A DNA stretch of 64,000 nt from contig JBBREP010000001.1 in the NCBI GenBank assembly GCA_038202885.1, positions 25,350 through 89,349 on the forward strand. The letters run 5' to 3'. Of the stretch, positions 3,131 through 40,448 are shown piece after piece; position 1 is the stretch's first letter, and every line of letters starts with the position of its first letter. Under the pieces are notes generated by a model, which made no database searches, was not told where the DNA came from, and saw only the letters and a program-made list of their open reading frames with translations. The translations under genes and the position numbers were made by a program. This stretch comes from Acidimicrobiia bacterium (GTDB lineage Bacteria; Actinomycetota; Acidimicrobiia; IMCC26256; PALSA-610).

Positions 3131-3967
3131 CTACTGCTTCTCGTACCAGACGAGGCCAATGACGCCAGGGCCGGTGTGCACGCCGACCACGGGGCCGATG
3201 AGGCCGACAAGTAGCTCCTCGCGCGGGGCGAGCGGTTCGACCATGGCGCAGAATTCGTCGAGATCGGTGGCCTGTGCGTGCAGCACGCACAGGTCCTCGA
3301 CCGGCGACTCCTTCGCCTTGTCGATGAGGAACCGCAGCGCTTTCGAACGGGTCCGCACCTTGCCGGCCGCCTCAACAACGCCGTTGTGCATCGTCATGAT
3401 CGGCTTGATCGACAGCACCGAACCGAGGAAGGCCTGCGCGCCGCCGATGCGGCCGCCCCGTCGGAGGTACTCGAGCGTGTCGACGGTGAACAGCACGCGG
3501 GTGCGGCTGCGCCGAGCTTCGGTTTCGGCGACGATGGCCTGAAGGTCGGCGCCGTCACGCGCCATCTTGGCCGCGTGGAGCACCTGCAATCCGATGCCCA
3601 TCGACGCGCTCTCGGAGTCGATGACGACGATCGGACAGGCACCATCCATCCGGTCGGCAGCAATCTGTGCCGACTGCATCGTGGCCGACATCTTCGACGA
3701 GATGTTGATGCACACAATGCCGTCGGCACCCGTGTCGGCCAGCGACTGGAACGTTTCTTGGAACGCACCCACCGACGGCGCCGAGGTCTCGGGAAGCGCC
3801 GTTGCCGCACGCAGGCGGGGCCAGAACTGCTCGGTCGTGAGCTCCTTGCGGTCGAGGAGTTCCTCGTCACCGAAGCGCACGGTGAGCGGGACGACGTCGA
3901 TGCCGAATTCGTCGCACAGCGGTTGCGGAAGATCGCAAGCACTGTCGGTCACGATTCGAATTGCCAT
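3131..3967 (-). CDS. DegV family fatty-acid-binding protein
   Basis: From ATG 3967 the sequence reads MAIRIVTDSACDLPQPLCDEFGIDVVPLTVRFGDEE, a typical DegV N-terminus. About 278 aa. Confidence 0.85.
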   Translation of the reverse strand: MAIRIVTDSACDLPQPLCDEFGIDVVPLTVRFGDEELLDRKELTTEQFWPRLRAATALPETSAPSVGAFQETFQSLADTGADGIVCINISSKMSATMQSAQIAADRMDGACPIVVIDSESASMGIGLQVLHAAKMARDGADLQAIVAETEARRSRTRVLFTVDTLEYLRRGGRIGGAQAFLGSVLSIKPIMTMHNGVVEAAGKVRTRSKALRFLIDKAKESPVEDLCVLHAQATDLDEFCAMVEPLAPREELLVGLIGPVVGVHTGPGVIGLVWYEKQ

Positions 3968-4073
3968 GCGTGCACTCCACCCTTCGTCGGCCGGCCCGTC
4001 GCTGTGCAGGTCCGCGCGGAACCTGCCCATCCGAGGCGTTGACGCTCGTTGGACATCGAGCGTCGACGCATCG

Positions 4074-5684
4074 TTACACGCGCGGAGCCCCAGATTTGCG
4101 CATCAACGAGGTGAGGCCCCCAAGTTCGGGGGTCCGCAGCCCCCACAGCACGAATGTGTACACCACACCCGCGATCGCGATCGCGAGCACAGTGGGCGCG
4201 ATCGCACCACCGGCGACGCGGCCGATGGCCAGTGCGGCGAGTGTTGCCAGTGTGGCTGCGGCGATGGTGCGCGCGGTCAGCGAGCCGACAGGGGCAAGGG
4301 GGAAGCCGCCCAGTCGGCGATAGAGCAAGATCATGGCGATCAGTGCGGCGAGCGCATACGCGAGCGCGAACGCCAGCGCCAGTCCGCGCACGCCGAAGTG
4401 GGGGTAGAGCACGAGCGCGAGGATGACGTTGGCGCCGTTTTCGACGCAGTTGACGATGAACGGCGTTCGGGCGTCCGACATCGAATAGAACGCGCGCAGC
4501 GTATAGAGATACGCCGAGAACGCCACGAGGCCGACGGCGAATCCCGACACAGCGCGCGCGGTGTCGGAAATCGCGGCCGAGCTGAAGGTGCCGTGGTGCA
4601 GCACCGGATCGATGATGGGCCGAGCGAGCGCGATGAGGAGCGCCGCGGCAGGCACAGTCGCAAGCAGGAGATAGCGCAGCCCGAGCGTGTACTCGCGCCG
4701 CAACGTGGGCAGATCACGCTCGCGAGCCGCCGTCGCGAGTTGCGGTGCGATCGCCGTCATGATCGACACCGCAATGAGTCCGTGCGGCAGTTGGAAGAAT
4801 GTGTAGGCGTACGTGTATTCGGCGAACACGCCGTTGCGGTTGCGGCTCAACGCAACGACGAATGCAAACGCGAGTTGGTTTGCGACGACGTAGCCGACCG
4901 TCCAACCCGACATGCGGGCGATGCGCGTCACCGCTCGATGCCGCCACGCGAACGTGATTCTCGTGTGCACGCCCGCGTGGTGCAACGCGGGAATGAGCAC
5001 CGCGGCCATCGCGACAATTCCCGCCGTCGTGCCCACGCCAAGCGCGAACACCACACTGTGATTGTGGGCCGCGTGGTCGAGGCAGGCGTCGAAGGCGTCG
5101 CTGCGCTTCGTGCGACACGATGGCAGCGATGGGCGCACCGCGAGCAACACGATCACGACGACGACGTTGTTCAAGACGGGAGCGAACGCTGCCGCGGTGA
5201 AGCGTCGACGAGCATTGAGCGCGGCCGTTGCGAGCGCGGTGTACGCGTAGAAGATCATCTGCGGCAAGAACAACGCCACGAGCAGCGTGCCGACCGATTC
5301 CGCTTGGGCGCGCTGCGCCGGCGGAACGCGGCTTGACAGCGCCGCGGTGATCGCAGGCGCCAACAGCATCGCGATGCCGGTGAGCAACAGCACCGCGGTG
5401 AGCGCGACCGTGAAGATCGCGTTCGTCGCGGAGTCGTCGTGCTCGGCGTGGGCATCGACGAACACCGGCACGAGCGCCGCGGTCAGCACGCCCCCAAGGA
5501 GCAGTTCGTACACGATGTTGGGTGTGGAGTTCGCGACGTTGTAGGTGTCGGCGAGGCCCGCCGCGCCCAGCACCGACGCGGTGATCGCGACGCGCACAAC
5601 GCCGGTGATACGCGACGCCATGGTGCCCGCGCCCACAATGGCCGAACGGCGCGCGAGCCGTTGTGTTGCGTCGATGTCGCTCAC
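4074..5684 (-). CDS. murJ: Lipid II flippase MurJ/MviN
   Basis: Polytopic protein whose N-terminal motif RSAIVGAGTMASRITGVVRVAITASVLGAAGLADTYNVANSTPNIVYELLLGGVL is typical of MurJ. The GTG at 5684 overlaps the upstream stop (GTGA). The ORF could nominally extend to 5762. Confidence 0.85.
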   Translation of the reverse strand: MSDIDATQRLARRSAIVGAGTMASRITGVVRVAITASVLGAAGLADTYNVANSTPNIVYELLLGGVLTAALVPVFVDAHAEHDDSATNAIFTVALTAVLLLTGIAMLLAPAITAALSSRVPPAQRAQAESVGTLLVALFLPQMIFYAYTALATAALNARRRFTAAAFAPVLNNVVVVIVLLAVRPSLPSCRTKRSDAFDACLDHAAHNHSVVFALGVGTTAGIVAMAAVLIPALHHAGVHTRITFAWRHRAVTRIARMSGWTVGYVVANQLAFAFVVALSRNRNGVFAEYTYAYTFFQLPHGLIAVSIMTAIAPQLATAARERDLPTLRREYTLGLRYLLLATVPAAALLIALARPIIDPVLHHGTFSSAAISDTARAVSGFAVGLVAFSAYLYTLRAFYSMSDARTPFIVNCVENGANVILALVLYPHFGVRGLALAFALAYALAALIAMILLYRRLGGFPLAPVGSLTARTIAAATLATLAALAIGRVAGGAIAPTVLAIAIAGVVYTFVLWGLRTPELGGLTSLMRKSGAPRV

Positions 5685-16439: not shown

Positions 16440-16919
16440 ATGGCAAAGCCCATGCGCAAGAAGCCTGCGGGCACCGAAAAGAAACTGAAGAAGAAGACGT
16501 CGATCCTGACGGCCGAGAAGGTCGTGTGGGTCGACTACAAAGACGCGAACCTGTTGCGTCGCTTCATGTCGGATCGCGCCAAGATCCGGGCGCGCCGTGT
16601 GACGGGAAACGACCAGCAGCAGCAGGCCGCTGTCGCCAAGGCGATCAAGCTGTCGCGTGAGATGGCGTTGCTGCCGTACAGCGTGCGTCAGGTGCAGCAG
16701 CGGACGAAGGGTCGCGGTGGCAGGGATCGTCGCGACGCCGACCTGCAGCTCGAGACCGAGCTTCCGTCCGAGGTCGCCGCGGCTGCCGCTGCGGCAGCCG
16801 AGGCTGAACTGCTCGCTGCGAGCGAGGTGTCCGACGGCGTGCTTGACGACGTCGCCGTCGTGGAGATCGATACGGCCGAGGAGTTGGCCGAAGTTCCGGC
16901 TGGGAGTGACGACCAATGA
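16440..16919 (+). CDS. rpsR: 30S ribosomal protein S18 with a long acidic C-terminal extension
   Basis: The core sequence VDYKDANLLRRFMSDRAKIRARRVTGN...SREMALLPY is followed by about 75 extra residues. The stop overlaps the rplI ATG (ATGA at 16916). Confidence 0.9.
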   Translation: MAKPMRKKPAGTEKKLKKKTSILTAEKVVWVDYKDANLLRRFMSDRAKIRARRVTGNDQQQQAAVAKAIKLSREMALLPYSVRQVQQRTKGRGGRDRRDADLQLETELPSEVAAAAAAAAEAELLAASEVSDGVLDDVAVVEIDTAEELAEVPAGSDDQ

Positions 16920-17368
16920 AGATCGTCTTGCGTGACGACGTCAGCTCGCTCGGTCGCAAGGGCGACCTTGTCGAGGTCAAGCCCGGCTACGCGCGGAACT
17001 ATCTCGTGCCGCGCGGTCTTGCGATCGTCGCGAACCGCGGTGTCATCGCACAGTCCGAAGCGATGCGGCGCAATCGTGTCGTGCGCGACCTGAAGGACAA
17101 AGAAGCGGCATTGGAAGTCGCCGCTCGGCTCCAGGGCCAGGTGCTGACGATCGGTGTGCGTGCCGGTGAGGGCGGCAAGTTGTTCGGCTCCGTCGGAGCG
17201 GCCGATGTGGTGGCGGCAATCCACGAGCAGCTCGGCGTCCAGCTCGACCGGCGTATGGTCAGCGGCATCGACGAGCCGTGGAAAGAACTCGGGTCGTTCG
17301 AGATCACGGTCAAACTCCACGCCGAAGTGAAGCCGACGGTGAGCGTGAGTATCGTCAGCCAGGGCTGA
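16916..17368 (+). CDS. rplI: 50S ribosomal protein L9
   Basis: MKIVLRDDVSSLGRKGDLVEVKPGYARNYLVPRGLA. Confidence 0.92.
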   Translation: MKIVLRDDVSSLGRKGDLVEVKPGYARNYLVPRGLAIVANRGVIAQSEAMRRNRVVRDLKDKEAALEVAARLQGQVLTIGVRAGEGGKLFGSVGAADVVAAIHEQLGVQLDRRMVSGIDEPWKELGSFEITVKLHAEVKPTVSVSIVSQG

Positions 17369-17432
17369 TCGGCACGCCGCAATCTGGAACCGCCCGCGCG
17401 GTGTAGTCGCCGCGGGCGCCGTGTGGGTCGCG

Positions 17433-17632
17433 CTATCCACAGGTAGTCGCGCGCGCTTTTCCACAGGACTATCCACAGGCAACTACCCGGTTGCCCGGCA
17501 CGGCCGGCGCCATCCCGCGGACGTGTCCGAAGCCCGGTACACAATGCCTGTGGAGGAGTCGGTCGGTTGCCCACAGGTTCTCCGCAGCGAAGTTGCGGAT
17601 ATCCCCGGCTTTGCCCACTTACTCCCCACAGG
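17433..17632. promoter_or_regulatory. Cluster of CCACAGG / DnaA-box-like motifs in the rplI-dnaB intergenic region
   Basis: CTATCCACAGG at 17433 and 17469. TTTTCCACAGG at 17457. CCTGTGGAGG (reverse orientation) at 17547. TTGCCCACAGG at 17567. TTGCCCAC at 17611. CTCCCCACAGG at 17622. Confidence 0.6.
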
Positions 17633-17675
17633 ACCGCCATGAGATCGTGATGGCTCAGGGGAAAGGGTTTGCCGC

Positions 17676-19043
17676 GTGGTGCAGTTCTTCGAAGAAGCGC
17701 GGCAACGCCGCGTCGCGGATGGTGGTCGGATCCCGCCGCACAACATCGAAGCCGAGGAGTCGCTCCTCGGTGCCATGATGTTGACCCGTGACGCGATCAC
17801 CGCGGCCATCGAGGTTCGCATCGAAGCGCACGACTTCTACAAGCCGGCGAACGGTCATCTGTTCACGGCCGCGATTTCGTTGCACAACCGCGGCGAGGCC
17901 GTCGACCCGGTCACCGTGGCCGAATATCTGCGGCGCGACGGGCTGCTCGAGCCGATCGGCGGGCAGCCGACGCTCTTGCGCATCCAGGCCCAAACCCCGG
18001 CGTCGGCGAACGCGGGTGAATACGCCAACATCGTCCATGAGCTCGCGCTGCTCCGCAAGCTGATCGCGGTCGGTGGCGACATCGCCGAGATGGGCTACGC
18101 GGGCACCGAAGACATCGACATCACGCTTGACTCGGCCGAGGCCATGGTGTTCGAGATCGCCGAGCACCGCGTCGGCGATTCGTTGGTGTCGCTGTATCCG
18201 ATTCTCGAAGCAACGATGAACGAGCTCGAACAGCTCTACGACCGCGACAGCAGCGTCACGGGGGTGCGAAGCGGTTTCCGCGACCTCGACGAGTTGCTGC
18301 TCGGCTTCCAACGATCCAACCTCATCGTGCTCGCGGCCCGACCTGGCCAGGGCAAGACGTCGTTGGCGCTCGGCGCGGCGCTGCACGTCGCGCTCGAGGA
18401 CCGCAAGCCGGTGTTGTTCTTCTCGATGGAGATGGACCGGCTCGACCTCACGCGTCGATTGCTCTCGTCCGAAGCGCGCATCAACGCGCGTGACCTCCAG
18501 ACCGGCCGCCTCGCCGAAGGCGATTGGCCGAGGCTGAACCAGGCCGTTGGTCGTCTGGCCGAGGCGCCGTTCTTCATCGACGACGACCCTCGGTGCACGG
18601 TCATGGAAATGCGCGCCAAGGCGCGCCGCATCAAGGCCCAGTACGGCGATGTCGGATTGATCGTCGTCGACTACCTCCAACTCATGTCGACGAACAAGCG
18701 GATCGAGAGCCGCCAAGTCGAAGTGTCGGAGTTGTCGCGTGGCCTGAAGATCCTGGCGCGCGAGATGCAGGCGCCGGTGCTCGCACTGTCGCAGCTCAAC
18801 CGTCAGCTCGAATACCGCACCGACAAGCGGCCGATGCTGGCCGACCTGCGAGAGTCGGGTTCGATCGAACAAGACGCCGACGTCGTGATGTTCATCTACC
18901 GAGACGACTATTACAACACCGAGTCGGATCAGCGCGGCGTGGCTGAGATCATCGTCGGCAAGCACCGAGGTGGCCCCACCGGCACGGTCCGGCTCGCCTT
19001 CCTCGACAAGTTCACCAAGTTCGCCAACATGGCCAGGGATTAA
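17676..19043 (+). CDS. dnaB: Replicative DNA helicase DnaB (no intein)
   Basis: Has PPHNIEAEESLLGAMML, Walker A ARPGQGKTS, IVVDYLQLM and ALSQLNR. 455 aa. Confidence 0.93.
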   Translation: MVQFFEEARQRRVADGGRIPPHNIEAEESLLGAMMLTRDAITAAIEVRIEAHDFYKPANGHLFTAAISLHNRGEAVDPVTVAEYLRRDGLLEPIGGQPTLLRIQAQTPASANAGEYANIVHELALLRKLIAVGGDIAEMGYAGTEDIDITLDSAEAMVFEIAEHRVGDSLVSLYPILEATMNELEQLYDRDSSVTGVRSGFRDLDELLLGFQRSNLIVLAARPGQGKTSLALGAALHVALEDRKPVLFFSMEMDRLDLTRRLLSSEARINARDLQTGRLAEGDWPRLNQAVGRLAEAPFFIDDDPRCTVMEMRAKARRIKAQYGDVGLIVVDYLQLMSTNKRIESRQVEVSELSRGLKILAREMQAPVLALSQLNRQLEYRTDKRPMLADLRESGSIEQDADVVMFIYRDDYYNTESDQRGVAEIIVGKHRGGPTGTVRLAFLDKFTKFANMARD

Positions 19044-23221: not shown

Positions 23222-25052
23222 TGATGCCTCGGATGTCGTAGACGATGACGGCGCCGTTGTCGTAGATCCGCGCCACGCCGGGGATGTTGTCGAACTTCGT
23301 CAGAGCGACGCGCGTGACGGGGAACTTGTGCGCGTAGCTCGCGTCCTCGCCCTGCTCCAGGTAGACGCCGACATGCGGCAGCCCCGTCGACATACGCACA
23401 TCGACGACCAGGTACTGGATCCGACCCTTGCGAATGAGCGCAAGGTCGTTGGGGGTCGGCGAGTGGTCGAAGAACACTCGGGAGGCATCGATGTTGTCAC
23501 CGACGTGCGTGACGCTGTATGACGTGCCGATCGCGGCAGCGAGAAGCCGACCGATGCGGTCCGACAACACCCTGCTGTTCGGCGGGAGGTGCTGACCGAT
23601 CCACTCGGCCGTCGCCACGTTGTAACGATCGACCGTACGATTGTCGGCCGACACGAGGTACGGCCCGGGCATACGCAGCCAACTTGGCCCGAATCCGGTC
23701 AGGACGCCGCCGACGAACATGAATGTGAGCACGAGCGTGATCGCGACGGTCCAGTCGCGCGTCCGATGCAAGAGCACGACGCCGGCCCACCATGCGAGCG
23801 CGAAGCCGACACCGACGAAGATCAGTCCTGTCGAACGGTCAGCGAACTCCGAAGTAGCGAGCGTGAGGTGCCCGATGGGCAAGAGTGGGAACGCGGCCGC
23901 GGTGACGAGCAACGCAATGGCGCGCGAGTCGCGGCGCTTGAACCACGCGCGACCCTTCCATAGGGCGGGGAGGAGCAACAGCCCGATCAGCGCGAGTGAC
24001 GACACCGACCAGATGCGCTCCCACAGCGCGGCCGTGCTGCCACCCCCGTCGACGAACAATTTGTGGTTACTGCTGCCCGTGATGAACGCGTTGATCTGTT
24101 CGCCGGAACCTTTCAGCGCGCTGCCGACGTAGCGCATCACGATCGTGCCTGGGAACAGCGTGTACAGACCGAGCATTGCCGTCGCGGCCGCGGCCACAAT
24201 GCCGTACAGGTGCGACTCGCGGTTGTAGCCGCGCGCGACGCGCTCGACTCTCCACAGGACGAAGACGGCACCAACGAACGCAAGCCCCATCAGGTGGTGG
24301 CTCACTATCGCGGCGCCTCCGATGGCGATGGCCGGGAGCACCGCGCGGCGATGGCGCGGGTGCGAGCGGTCGACGAGGAGATACACGGCTGCGAGCGCGA
24401 GCGGCAGTGCGAGGGACTGGTACGAGAATTGCGAGTTGAAAAAGAGATACTGCGGGTTCGCGGCGTACACGAGTGCAGCTATGGCAGCAACGCGCTCGGA
24501 ACCCGTCAGCCATTCCACAAACGCGATGAGCGCGAGCGTGGAGAGCACGCGTGCGAGGACGAGGACGATGACGCCACTGGTATGCCCGGTGAGGCCGGTG
24601 AGCGACGACACCGCGTGCGTGACGATCTCGAGACCGGGGTAATAGCGAACGACCGGCAGGGTCGATGTTGCATGGAACAGTCGGTGGGTCGATGTGAGTA
24701 GTCGCAGCGCCTCGACGTGGACCAACTCGTCGTGATACACGAAGAACTTCGGGTAGAGCACGACTTGACTGAACACCGCGGCGGCGCCGAGCACGAGCGA
24801 CAACGTGATGCGCTCGCGCCGCACAGTGTCGCGACCGACGATACGGAATGCGCAGGGCACGAAGATGATGATGAGGCTGATCCAGAACAGTGGCGTGGCG
24901 TACCAGTGCTCGTGCCGGCTGGCTATCCCTGCGAGCGCGTGGAGGAACAACCCGACGCACACGGACAGGATGGCCCACCCGGTGAGGTCGCGCTGGGGCG
25001 ATCGTGCCCGGCGGAACAGTTCCTGAAGGCCGGCTTCATCCTCGAGCAACAT
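23208..25052 (-). CDS. GT-C-fold-like polytopic glycosyltransferase candidate
   Basis: 614 aa from ATG 25052 (RBS GGAAGGA). It has more than 10 TM helices, a first-loop motif YHDELVH resembling the DE motif of PMT/ArnT-type enzymes, and a C-terminal soluble domain. Confidence 0.55.
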   Translation of the reverse strand: MLLEDEAGLQELFRRARSPQRDLTGWAILSVCVGLFLHALAGIASRHEHWYATPLFWISLIIIFVPCAFRIVGRDTVRRERITLSLVLGAAAVFSQVVLYPKFFVYHDELVHVEALRLLTSTHRLFHATSTLPVVRYYPGLEIVTHAVSSLTGLTGHTSGVIVLVLARVLSTLALIAFVEWLTGSERVAAIAALVYAANPQYLFFNSQFSYQSLALPLALAAVYLLVDRSHPRHRRAVLPAIAIGGAAIVSHHLMGLAFVGAVFVLWRVERVARGYNRESHLYGIVAAAATAMLGLYTLFPGTIVMRYVGSALKGSGEQINAFITGSSNHKLFVDGGGSTAALWERIWSVSSLALIGLLLLPALWKGRAWFKRRDSRAIALLVTAAAFPLLPIGHLTLATSEFADRSTGLIFVGVGFALAWWAGVVLLHRTRDWTVAITLVLTFMFVGGVLTGFGPSWLRMPGPYLVSADNRTVDRYNVATAEWIGQHLPPNSRVLSDRIGRLLAAAIGTSYSVTHVGDNIDASRVFFDHSPTPNDLALIRKGRIQYLVVDVRMSTGLPHVGVYLEQGEDASYAHKFPVTRVALTKFDNIPGVARIYDNGAVIVYDIRGINASS

Positions 25053-37904: not shown

Positions 37905-39068
37905 ATGCCCAGTGCCGTGATCGTCGATGCTGTTCGCACACCGCTCGGACGTCGCAACGGAGGCCTCGCCGGCACCCACCCGGTTGACCTGGCCGCCCAT
38001 GTGCTCAAGTCGCTGGTCGATCGCACCGGTATCGATCCGGCCCTGATCGAAGACGTCATCATGGGCTGTGTCATGCAAGTGGGTGAGCAGGCCGTCAACA
38101 TCGCTCGCAACTCGGCGCTCGCCGCCGGACTGCCCGACACCACACCCGGCACCACCGTCGACCGTCAATGCGGCAGCTCCCAGCAGTCGGCGCATTTCGC
38201 GGCCCAGGGCGTGATTGCAGGCGCGTACGACGTTGTCATCGCCGCCGGCGTCGAGAACATGTCGCGTGTGCCGATGGGCGCGAGCTTCGCCAAAGGTGAA
38301 TACGGCATTCCGTTCAGCGAGTTGCTCACGCAGCACTACCCGAACCTCGTGCCGCAAGGAATCTCGGCCGAGATGATCTCGGAGAAGTGGAGCATCAGCC
38401 GCGAACAGAATGACGCGTTCGCGCTGCAGTCGCATCAGCGTGCTTCTCGCGCGCGTGATGAGGGCCGTTTCGACCGCGAGATCGTGCCCGTCATCGTGCA
38501 TGGCGAACAAGGTGAGCAACTCGTGTCGATCGACGAGGGGATCCGCCCCGACAGCTCGCTTGAGACCTTGGCCCGGCTCAAGCCCGCGTTCAAGCCCGAC
38601 GGTGTGATTACCGCAGGCAACTCCTCGCAGATCACCGACGGCGCGGCCGCGATGCTGATCATGGAGGAGGAGACGGCGAAGCGTCTTGGGCTCACACCGC
38701 GCGCTCGGTTCCACACGTTCGCGCTCGCTGGCGCCGACCCGGTGCTCATGCTCACGGCCCCGATCCCGGCGACGTCGAAAGTGCTCGAGCGTGCGGGAAT
38801 GACCATCGACCAGATGGACATCATCGAGATCAACGAGGCGTTCGCGCCGGTCGTGCTCGCATGGGCCGCCGAGCACAACCCCGACATGGCGAAGGTGAAC
38901 CCCAACGGTGGTGCCATCGCACTCGGTCACCCGCTGGGGTGCTCGGGTGCGCGCCTCATGGCGACGCTCCTGTGCGAGTTGGAACGGACCGGTGGCCGCT
39001 TCGGCCTCCAGACGATGTGCGAAGGCGGCGGTATGGCCAACGCCACCATCATCGAGCGCTTGGGGTAA
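37905..39068 (+). CDS. Acetyl-CoA C-acyltransferase (thiolase)
   Basis: GAAGGAG RBS. MPSAVIVDAVRTPLGRRNG, active-site DRQCGSSQQ, NEAFA, GGAIALGHPLGCSGARL. Confidence 0.9.
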   Translation: MPSAVIVDAVRTPLGRRNGGLAGTHPVDLAAHVLKSLVDRTGIDPALIEDVIMGCVMQVGEQAVNIARNSALAAGLPDTTPGTTVDRQCGSSQQSAHFAAQGVIAGAYDVVIAAGVENMSRVPMGASFAKGEYGIPFSELLTQHYPNLVPQGISAEMISEKWSISREQNDAFALQSHQRASRARDEGRFDREIVPVIVHGEQGEQLVSIDEGIRPDSSLETLARLKPAFKPDGVITAGNSSQITDGAAAMLIMEEETAKRLGLTPRARFHTFALAGADPVLMLTAPIPATSKVLERAGMTIDQMDIIEINEAFAPVVLAWAAEHNPDMAKVNPNGGAIALGHPLGCSGARLMATLLCELERTGGRFGLQTMCEGGGMANATIIERLG

Positions 39069-39075
39069 TTCCGAG

Positions 39076-39333
39076 GTGTTCGTCGTCAAGGTCGTGCTGG
39101 CTGGCATCGTGGTACTGGTGCTGTATCTCGTCGGCGCTGGTTTCGTTCGCAGCTTCGCCGAGGGCCAGCCTGATCCCGCCGACGACGACGTTGCGCTGTC
39201 CGATGTCGACCTGCGGTATCGCTGCATCGTGTGCGGTGCGGAGGTCGTGATGTATGCCGCGCCCGACGGCGAACTGCCGATGCCGCCGCGACATTGTGCC
39301 GAACGCATGGCGCTCATCAGTCCAGTGAGCTGA
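39076..39333 (+). CDS. Small membrane-anchored protein with a CxxC...HC motif
   Basis: From GTG 39076 there is a TM helix (VVKVVLAGIVVLVLYLVGAGFV), an acidic linker and then RYRCIVCGAEVVMYAAPDGELPMPPRHCAERM. No homology was recognised. Confidence 0.4.
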   Translation: MFVVKVVLAGIVVLVLYLVGAGFVRSFAEGQPDPADDDVALSDVDLRYRCIVCGAEVVMYAAPDGELPMPPRHCAERMALISPVS

Positions 39334-39396: not shown

Positions 39397-39437
39397 TTGT
39401 CCACAGGCTGCGATGTTTTCCCCAACCTGTGGACGAC
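39397..39437. promoter_or_regulatory. Inverted pair of DnaA-box-like motifs
   Basis: TTGTCCACAGG (39397-39407) and CCTGTGGACGA (39427-39437) are separated by 19 nt in a convergent intergenic region. Confidence 0.5.
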
Positions 39438-39562: not shown

Positions 39563-39799
39563 TTAGCGGTAGTTGGCGGCGAGGGTGAAGCCGAAGACGA
39601 CCCAGAACAGGCCGAGGAACAGGTAGCGGTTCTCGGGCTGGGGCCCCGGCAGCAGGTTCAGGTAGTTCAAGACGATCATGAACAGCCCGGTGAGAAACGA
39701 CGTGCCCATCAGCACGGGAATCCAGAAGGGGCTTTCCTTTTCGGCCTTGGGTTTGGGCGGCGTATAGCGGCCGCTTGTCGCTGCTCCCTTGGTCGCCAC
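39563..39799 (-). CDS. crgA: Cell division protein CrgA
   Basis: RYTPPKPK...PFWIPVLMGTSFLTGLFMIVLNYLNLLP...YLFLGLFWVVFGFTLAANYR shows two TM helices. GTG 39799 places YTPP where I recall it in Streptomyces CrgA. The ORF is nominally open to 39877, which would overlap trpG. Confidence 0.75.
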   Translation of the reverse strand: MATKGAATSGRYTPPKPKAEKESPFWIPVLMGTSFLTGLFMIVLNYLNLLPGPQPENRYLFLGLFWVVFGFTLAANYR

Positions 39800-39851
39800 G
39801 CCCGCGAATCTACCCGCGGCGCGTGAGCTCGGCGCGGGTACCGTCCTCGGC

Positions 39852-40448
39852 GTGGTCCGGGTCCTCGTCATCGACAACTACGACAGCTTCGTCTACAACC
39901 TCGTGCAGTACCTCGGTGAGCTCGGCGCCGAACCCGTGGTGTACCGCAACGATGCCCTCGACGTGGCCGGGCTCCGAGCCTGCGCACCCGACGCCGTGCT
40001 CGTGTCGCCGGGGCCAGGACGACCCGAAGACGCCGGTGTGTCGACCGACGCCATTCGCGCGTTCGGCGAAGCGGGTATCCCGGTGCTCGGCGTGTGCCTC
40101 GGCCATCAGTGCATCGGCCAGCTCTACGGCGCCACGGTGACGCGCGCGCTGGCGGTGATGCACGGCAAGACCTCGCAGATCACGCATTCGGGCGAAGGTG
40201 TGTTCTGCGACATCGACAGTCCCTTTACCGCCACGCGCTATCACTCGCTCGTGGTGGATCGCTCGACGGTGCACGCGCCGCTCGAGATCACCGCGGAGTC
40301 CGAAGACGGCCTCGTGATGGGGTTACGCCATCGCGAGCTACCGATCGAAGGCGTGCAGTTTCATCCCGAGTCGATCCTCACCGATGCTGGCCACCACCTG
40401 TTGCGCAATTTCCTCAGCGCTGCGGCAGGCTCACGCGCCCGCGGTTGA
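39852..40448 (+). CDS. trpG: Glutamine amidotransferase, anthranilate/aminodeoxychorismate synthase component II
   Basis: VLVIDNYDSFVYNLVQYL, GVCLGHQ, FHPES. Start at GTG 39852. Confidence 0.85.
   Translation: MVRVLVIDNYDSFVYNLVQYLGELGAEPVVYRNDALDVAGLRACAPDAVLVSPGPGRPEDAGVSTDAIRAFGEAGIPVLGVCLGHQCIGQLYGATVTRALAVMHGKTSQITHSGEGVFCDIDSPFTATRYHSLVVDRSTVHAPLEITAESEDGLVMGLRHRELPIEGVQFHPESILTDAGHHLLRNFLSAAAGSRARG

Follow-up and report, generated by a model that had tools for sequence, protein, structure and literature searches.

A probable DnaA-box cluster between rplI and dnaB in an uncultured Acidimicrobiia-like actinobacterium, at the position of a DnaA-bound locus of mycobacteria

The closest described counterpart of the locus considered here comes from the mapping of DnaA binding in mycobacteria by Hicks et al. 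2020, using IDAP-seq in M. tuberculosis and ChIP-seq in M. smegmatis (PMC7738170). Five top DnaA regions were common to both methods: oriC, rpmH-dnaA, Rv0057 (upstream of dnaB), Rv0010c-Rv0011c and Rv3843c-RVnc0040. Strongest of all, in vitro as well as in vivo, was the site between rplI and dnaB, with IDAP enrichments of 35.6-44.9 against 7.9-15.1 for oriC at 150 nM and, in M. smegmatis, a ChIP enrichment of 225-fold against 44-fold for oriC (PMC7738170). The DnaA variant I282T combines weaker binding at the dnaB promoter with uniquely low dnaB expression, which indicates positive control of dnaB in mycobacteria, and the same authors mention DnaA binding upstream of dnaB in Caulobacter (PMC7738170). 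At the Rv0010c-Rv0011c site, where Rv0011c is crgA, the bound palindrome carries two box-like sequences 88-113 nt past the crgA end; its discovery paper saw 'no obvious correspondence' in other bacteria (PMC7738170).

Related arrangements are known further afield. Escherichia coli DnaA prefers double boxes 2-3 bp apart in vivo, and head-to-tail pairs of this kind are found at the dnaA, nrdA, polA and purH promoters (PMC11317965). DARS1/DARS2 and datA of the same organism are extra-origin multi-box loci; a DARS, or DnaA-reactivating sequence, promotes ADP release and has a core made of oppositely oriented and head-to-tail boxes (PMC6868365). In Bacillus subtilis, intergenic DnaA-box clusters (DBCs) near oriC have two effects: they control the genes beside them, and they retain DnaA and so hold back initiation (PMC3245932).

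The window analysed here, a 64,000-nt stretch of high-GC DNA (~67%) from an uncultured Acidimicrobiia-like actinobacterium whose nearest database proteins bear the label of Acidimicrobiia MAGs, carries a dense group of DnaA-box-like motifs in the spacer between rplI and dnaB, positionally orthologous to the DnaA-bound mycobacterial locus. As in mycobacteria, the site follows rplI, lies ~100-330 nt before dnaB and is origin-proximal, in a member of the same phylum, and a second site, formed by two inverted boxes, lies ~90-170 nt past the crgA 3′ end. The likeness described here is one of position, and the class differs (Acidimicrobiia-like here, Actinomycetes for mycobacteria). In mycobacteria the interval also contains an annotated ORF, Rv0057, which has no equivalent in the lineage of the window. 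The cluster shares with the B. subtilis DBCs its intergenic boxes near oriC, although those have other neighbour genes and none is found at rplI-dnaC (PMC3245932). It shares with the E. coli promoters their head-to-tail pairs with 2-3 bp gaps, but it is made of several pairs plus an inverted box, and the 16 regions bound in E. coli ChIP do not include dnaB (PMC11317965). It resembles DARS1/DARS2 and datA in being an extra-origin multi-box locus, but the three-box DARS core has a 5-bp gap between boxes I and II, while in the window lineage 8-9 bp separate boxes B and C (defined below) and a variable 1-7 bp separate A and B (PMC6868365).

The rplI-dnaB spacer and its boxes

By Pfam assignment the gene string reads panB, rpsF, ssb, rpsR, rplI, the 307-bp spacer and dnaB, followed by nucS on the opposite strand; trxA-trxB, DegV, DUF6049 and cca occupy the left end of the window. 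Predicted boxes were scored with a position weight matrix (PWM) built solely from 14 origin and dnaA-promoter boxes of two relatives (L162 and L163, described below), and their layout was compared across eight genomes in an alignment, A2. The elements are, in window coordinates:

16916..17368, plus strand: rplI (ribosomal protein L9), with Pfam Ribosomal_L9_N and Ribosomal_L9_C; precedes dnaB in 7/7 relatives
17369-17675: rplI-dnaB spacer, 307 bp, flanked by rplI and dnaB
17391..17418, plus strand: GC-rich hairpin 3′ of the rplI stop, from sequence reading and a minimum free energy fold, with no U-tract; probable rplI terminator
17433..17443, plus strand: distal DnaA box CTATCCACAGG; PWM 16.7, one of the three best scores in the window
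17457..17479, plus strand: double DnaA box TTTTCCACA-gga-CTATCCACAgg, its two boxes 3 bp apart; PWM 17.7 (first in the window) and 16.7 (joint second)
17533..17541, plus strand: degenerate box A, CGGTACACA; aligns with cGTCCACAc of relatives (A2 columns 201-210)
17547..17557, minus strand: inverted box B, reading TCCTCCACAGG on the minus strand; the inverted motif CCTGTGGAGG covers 17547-17556
17567..17586, plus strand: double box C/D, TTGCCCACA-gg-TTCTCCGCA, its two boxes 2 bp apart (alignment A2)
17596..17604, plus strand: degenerate box-like block ATATCCCCG; aligned consensus of relatives TATCCcC / TATCCAC (A2 columns 271-280)
17611..17632, plus strand: proximal double box TTGCCCACT-ta-CTCCCCACAgg; invariant A2 columns C259-G264
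17640..17648, plus strand: putative extended -10, TGaGATCGT; cross-genome consensus TGnGAnnnT, with T272, G273 and T280 invariant in A2
17659..17668, plus strand: ribosome-binding site GGGGAAAGGG; AGGGGG block conserved in A2
17676..19043, plus strand: dnaB (replicative helicase), GTG start, with Pfam DnaB and DnaB_C

The original prediction listed seven motifs in this spacer as lying 1-3 mismatches from the DnaA box consensus TT(A/G)TCCACA, and all seven are where it placed them, within that distance. Besides the distal box and the inverted motif, these are TTTTCCACAGG at 17457, a second CTATCCACAGG copy at 17469, TTGCCCACAGG at 17567, TTGCCCAC at 17611 and CTCCCCACAGG at 17622. Three head-to-tail double boxes result: 17457/17469 (3 bp), 17567/17578 (2 bp) and 17611/17622 (2 bp), the first of which matches the double box of the E. 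coli dnaA promoter in both its spacing and its 'gga' spacer. Within the 307 bp there are at least eight boxes with two or fewer mismatches, and about ten boxes in total; the six with a CCACAGG core have strong to moderate scores and the others are degenerate. One further box in the spacer has no GG tail.

The CCACAGG core had been counted nine times in the window, eight of them in this spacer and in the site at 39397. There are in fact 12 copies on both strands, while the figure of eight for the two sites stands (six at 17437-17632, two at 39401-39432), with the remaining copies at 24252, 35355, 35493 and 58830. The window total is in itself unremarkable, given that dinucleotide shuffles contain a mean of 6.65 and 4/100 of them reach 12. 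Their concentration is another matter: the spacer holds six copies in 196 bp, where ~0.02 are expected per 200 bp (Poisson P ~1e-13), and the maximum over 300 shuffles was 3 per 200 bp. The PWM derived from the relatives gives a similar picture, with 6 matches per 300 bp at the spacer against a shuffle maximum of 4.

Hairpins equivalent to the probable rplI terminator are found in relatives, at about 2787-2830 in L005, where GGCGGCCAAATTGGCCGCC is followed by a T-rich stretch, and at about 2725-2760 in L001. The distal boxes precede the hairpin, within the rplI 3′ UTR, in L005, L001, L003 and L004, and follow it in the window. An ORF spanning much of the spacer (17421-17642) was considered as coding sequence and rejected, owing to the lack of a GC3 signal and to non-triplet indels in the alignment.

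Consensus scans of 17300-17750 for sigma-70 promoters and terminators returned no match, so that the putative extended -10 is drawn only from the invariant alignment columns; the TG...T columns at 17640-17648 are a possible element of that type. The proximal boxes keep a constant distance from the start of dnaB, whose promoter they probably overlap.

Conservation in relatives and their origin boxes

DnaB searches of genome and metagenome collections gave seven usable relatives (L001-L005, L082 and L085) with DnaB 67-85% identical to that of the window, the remaining matches belonging to Firmicutes, Proteobacteria and others at ~45% identity. The same strain is represented by an 11-kb Logan contig, whose spacer is 100% identical to that of the window and thus adds no comparative information; the dnaB start is called identically on the matching Logan contig L081. 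In each of the seven relatives rplI lies directly upstream of dnaB, with spacers of 230-340 bp, and each of these spacers contains DnaA boxes. Among them, L005 and L001 have the perfect boxes TTGTCCACA and TTATCCACA, while TCGTCCACA is found in L003, L004, L082 and L085. The 2.8 kb upstream of dnaB contain 21 boxes with at most one mismatch, against 6 in 42.8 kb of flanks, a ~50-fold enrichment.

Beyond the number of boxes, their arrangement is conserved. In A2, the ~130 bp adjoining dnaB show a conserved order of elements, namely box A (plus), box B (minus), an 8-9 bp gap, the double box C/D (plus), the TATCCcC block and the proximal pair, followed by the invariant TG...T columns, the AGGGGG ribosome-binding site and the GTG start. 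An inverted box occupies the position of box B in seven of the eight genomes, always 8-9 bp ahead of box C, and the 2-bp double box C/D is kept in L005, L001, L002, L085, L004 and L003. The proximal CACAGG (17627-17632) is invariant in 8/8 genomes, whereas the 5′ half of that box is not conserved; this CACAGG may therefore be constrained for a reason other than being a box, for example as a promoter element. Toward rplI, the distal boxes differ in number and position among the genomes.

The dnaB genes of three relatives (L003 and L004 at 4216-4815, L082 at 3854-4471) carry an insertion of ~600 bp which splits the DnaB match near residue 400 and looks like an intein. The dnaB of the window is free of it.

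Three other actinobacterial dnaB loci (L018, L022 and L042) have no box cluster, which means that not every member of the phylum carries the element. Boxes at the helicase gene recur in an unrelated phylum, upstream of dnaB in Xanthomonadales-like gammaproteobacterial loci. In nine of these (L033, L035, L038, L060, L096, L102, L123, L132 and L135) near-perfect boxes (TTATCCACAg...), mostly paired, sit ~100-150 bp upstream of dnaB, with 0-2 boxes in the remaining 3-9 kb. The start-to-start spacing of the pair is 21 bp in 7/9 loci and 32 bp in L135; the exceptions to pairing are L038, with a single box, and L096, whose second box is distant.

For comparison with origin sequences, two relatives were found through TrxB homologues, L162 (from a 4.59-Mb genome) and L163 (on the same contig as L005), so that the comparison of box flavour is based on relatives with 77-85% TrxB identity and not on the oriC of the window genome itself. 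Both present the gene order trxB, trxA, cwlM, parB, parA, gidB, jag, yidC, rnpA, dnaA, dnaN. Their dnaA-dnaN spacers read T(T/C)GTCCACA-ATCCACAGG, then 0-2 bp, then a (C)TACTACTACAAC run, and further hold TTTTCCACAGG, TTTCCACAGG and TTATCCACC; AATCCACAGG is also among the boxes of the dnaA-dnaN spacer or dnaA promoter of these relatives, and the dnaA promoter of L163 carries TTTCCACACCTGTGGATTGTGCTGTGGATAA. The core of this region (L163 19694-19735, L162 19838-19875) consists of two overlapping boxes, a TACTACTACAAC(TACAAC) run and AT-richer DNA. The TACTACTACAAC run is DnaA-trio-like, with 3′-GAT repeats on the opposite strand.

The boxes of the window are of this same origin flavour. The TTTTCCACAGG at 17457 is identical to one oriC box of L163, and the five best PWM matches in the window (17457, 17469, 17433, 39397 and 39426) all belong to the two sites. 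CCACAGG itself is concentrated at the relatives' origins: in L163 all three copies found in 21 kb lie in the dnaA-dnaN spacer and dnaA promoter, and the dnaA-dnaN spacer of L162 accounts for three of its five copies. The seven relatives, the shared flavour with oriC and dnaA-promoter boxes, the double-box spacing and the DnaA binding seen in mycobacteria all support the DnaA-box cluster that had been proposed from the window alone, and the CCACAGG motifs of the spacer are very probably DnaA binding sites.

A second site beside crgA

Two further boxes lie between a small ORF and crgA:

39397..39436: palindromic DnaA-box pair, TTGTCCACAGG (plus strand, 39397-39407) and TCGTCCACAGG (minus strand, 39426-39436); PWM ranks 4 and 5
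39563-39877, minus strand: crgA, with the box palindrome 126-166 nt past its 3′ end
L165 3635-3655, L166 3544-3643, L167 3632-3664 and L168 3451-3483: boxes on the crgA side in relatives, as an inverted pair or cluster

In four relatives (L165-L168), the best PWM matches of each 8.6-kb locus are again those in the short spacer that follows the 3′ end of crgA. The site of the window corresponds to the mycobacterial Rv0010c-Rv0011c DnaA site, from which it differs in its neighbour, a convergent small ORF instead of Rv0010c. By synteny, it is estimated to lie ~48 kb from dnaA-dnaN. Since it is placed between convergent genes, a role as a promoter operator is unlikely.

The small ORF itself, of 85-90 aa, lies between a thiolase gene and crgA (window 39076-39333, plus strand; L165 3311-3574, L167 3355-3627, L168 3170-3433). 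It is conserved, the window and L165 versions sharing 74% identity. It presents an N-terminal hydrophobic helix and a CxxC...HC motif that looks like a zinc ribbon, and matches no Pfam family. A minus-strand ORF at 39049-39294 was considered as the Rv0010c counterpart and discarded, as it lacks membrane character and the real gene is the plus-strand small ORF. Between 39322 and 39378 a 28-bp unit, CCAGTGAGCTGACCCAGCTGGCCTGGGG, is perfectly duplicated in tandem with a period of 29, beginning in the last codons and stop of the small ORF and lying immediately before the DnaA-box palindrome.

Readings of the cluster

The reading that we favour, with a probability of roughly 75%, is that of an origin-proximal DnaA-box cluster bound by DnaA that controls dnaB and probably acts as a DnaA sink as well. 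DnaA would bind cooperatively, through the double boxes and by oligomerisation, over a region just upstream of the dnaB promoter and overlapping it, and the amount or activity of DnaA would be coupled to dnaB transcription. By analogy with mycobacteria, the effect of DnaA on dnaB is most likely positive. The sink function is suggested by the distance of ~26 kb from oriC together with the high-affinity, multi-site character of the cluster, for which the B. subtilis clusters offer a parallel. Control of dnaB and titration of DnaA are both viable and do not exclude each other.

The cluster might instead be purely an element of the DnaA cycle, of the datA, DARS or DBC type, with no direct role in dnaB transcription. 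This we regard as unlikely, though several observations fit it. The cluster is multi-site and close to the origin, its M. smegmatis ortholog outcompetes oriC in ChIP, and B. subtilis DBCs do restrain initiation; the distal boxes vary among genomes and can precede the rplI terminator hairpin, the conserved inverted box beside head-to-tail boxes recalls the DARS core, and the companion site at crgA has convergent genes on its two sides, a setting in which a promoter would not be expected. What speaks for a direct link with dnaB is that the best-conserved ~130 bp are locked to its ribosome-binding site and start codon, with indels mostly in the distal part. The mycobacterial I282T variant moreover ties weaker binding at this very site to lower dnaB expression, and the presence of boxes upstream of dnaB in Xanthomonadales, and reportedly in Caulobacter, points to a gene-linked function.

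A broader version of the same idea takes the rplI-dnaB and crgA sites together as an ancient, Actinomycetota-wide pair belonging to the DnaA cycle, which sets the timing of initiation and for which dnaB regulation is secondary. The pair would act in a datA- or DARS-like manner, sequestering DnaA or remodelling its nucleotide state. The fixed 8-9 bp gap of the inverted box, the greater occupancy of the site than of oriC in M. smegmatis and the convergent-gene setting of the crgA site are all compatible with such a pair, which we nevertheless hold to be improbable. We know of no characterised Hda, datA or DARS system in actinobacteria.

The GG that follows the boxes had been taken as a hint that another factor is possible. 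On such a reading a different protein would recognise YCCACAGG, and the likeness to the DnaA box would be coincidental or due to co-binding. The tail is indeed unevenly distributed, with CCACA followed by GG in 8/9 cases inside the two sites against 4/115 elsewhere in the window, and several boxes have departed from the 5′ TT(A/G)T half. The same tail, however, is carried by origin boxes of the relatives, which makes it a genuine origin-box feature of the lineage and not the sign of another factor; at oriC these GG-tailed boxes directly adjoin the trio run, where DnaA must bind. At the same positions of the spacer, L005 and L001 have perfect canonical boxes without GG, and often the GG is merely the 2-3 bp spacer of a double box. 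In E. coli, ChIP-bound boxes are likewise frequently followed by G, and TTATCCACAggaCTTTCCAGA of the dnaA promoter closely resembles TTTTCCACAggaCTATCCACA of the window (PMC11317965). We consider recognition by another protein very unlikely. As to named candidates, none of the RecA-NDp/PafBC, LexA and MtrA motifs known to us fits.

The suggestion that the spacer is a replication origin, or one half of a bipartite origin, finds some appeal in the many DnaA boxes adjoining the helicase gene and in their origin-proximal part of the chromosome, but it fits the sequence so badly that we give it almost no credence. GC skew is positive on both sides, from 1 to ~50 kb, with no switch near 17.5 kb. No AT-rich stretch that could serve as a DUE exists in the spacer (the maximum AT in any 20 bp is 0.55), nor any DnaA-trio-like run, whereas the dnaA-dnaN spacers of the relatives have both a trio run and AT-rich DNA. 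In Actinomycetota, oriC typically adjoins dnaA/dnaN, and neither gene was found in the window by a Pfam scan of part of its ORFs. The synteny with L162 and L163 (trxB...parBA-gidB-jag-yidC-rnpA-dnaA-dnaN) places dnaA-dnaN ~8.5 kb left of the window, hence ~26 kb from the spacer.

Because ~130 bp of non-coding DNA are conserved ahead of an essential gene, a structured RNA might be suspected, either a 5′ leader of dnaB or a small RNA. This can be dismissed with near certainty: no Rfam family reaches gathering score in the spacer (the whole-window scan returned tRNA-Leu only), the RNAalifold energy is -8.3 kcal/mol and its covariation term is unfavourable, the main 'helix' (9/18 predicted pairs) is the two inverted boxes pairing, the other two stems are short and without compensatory changes, the single-sequence fold has z = -1.14, and one box is kept in inverted orientation, as expected of double-stranded DNA sites.

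The cluster is thus a known kind of element, at the same position as the strongest DnaA-bound locus of mycobacteria, and what is new is its occurrence in an uncultured actinobacterial lineage. Two mycobacterial DnaA loci, rplI-dnaB and the one adjacent to crgA, are hereby extended to a distant Acidimicrobiia-like group, and their presence in a distant class implies that the link between initiator and helicase, like the crgA site, is older than the divergence of the actinobacterial classes. For annotation, a dense DnaA-box cluster adjoining dnaB should not be called an origin. The main added value lies in the deep conservation of both sites and in a defined box architecture, whose double boxes, fixed-distance inverted box and GG tail offer a basis for designing mutations in tractable mycobacteria; drug tolerance in mycobacteria has been linked to variants of dnaA and of the crgA site.
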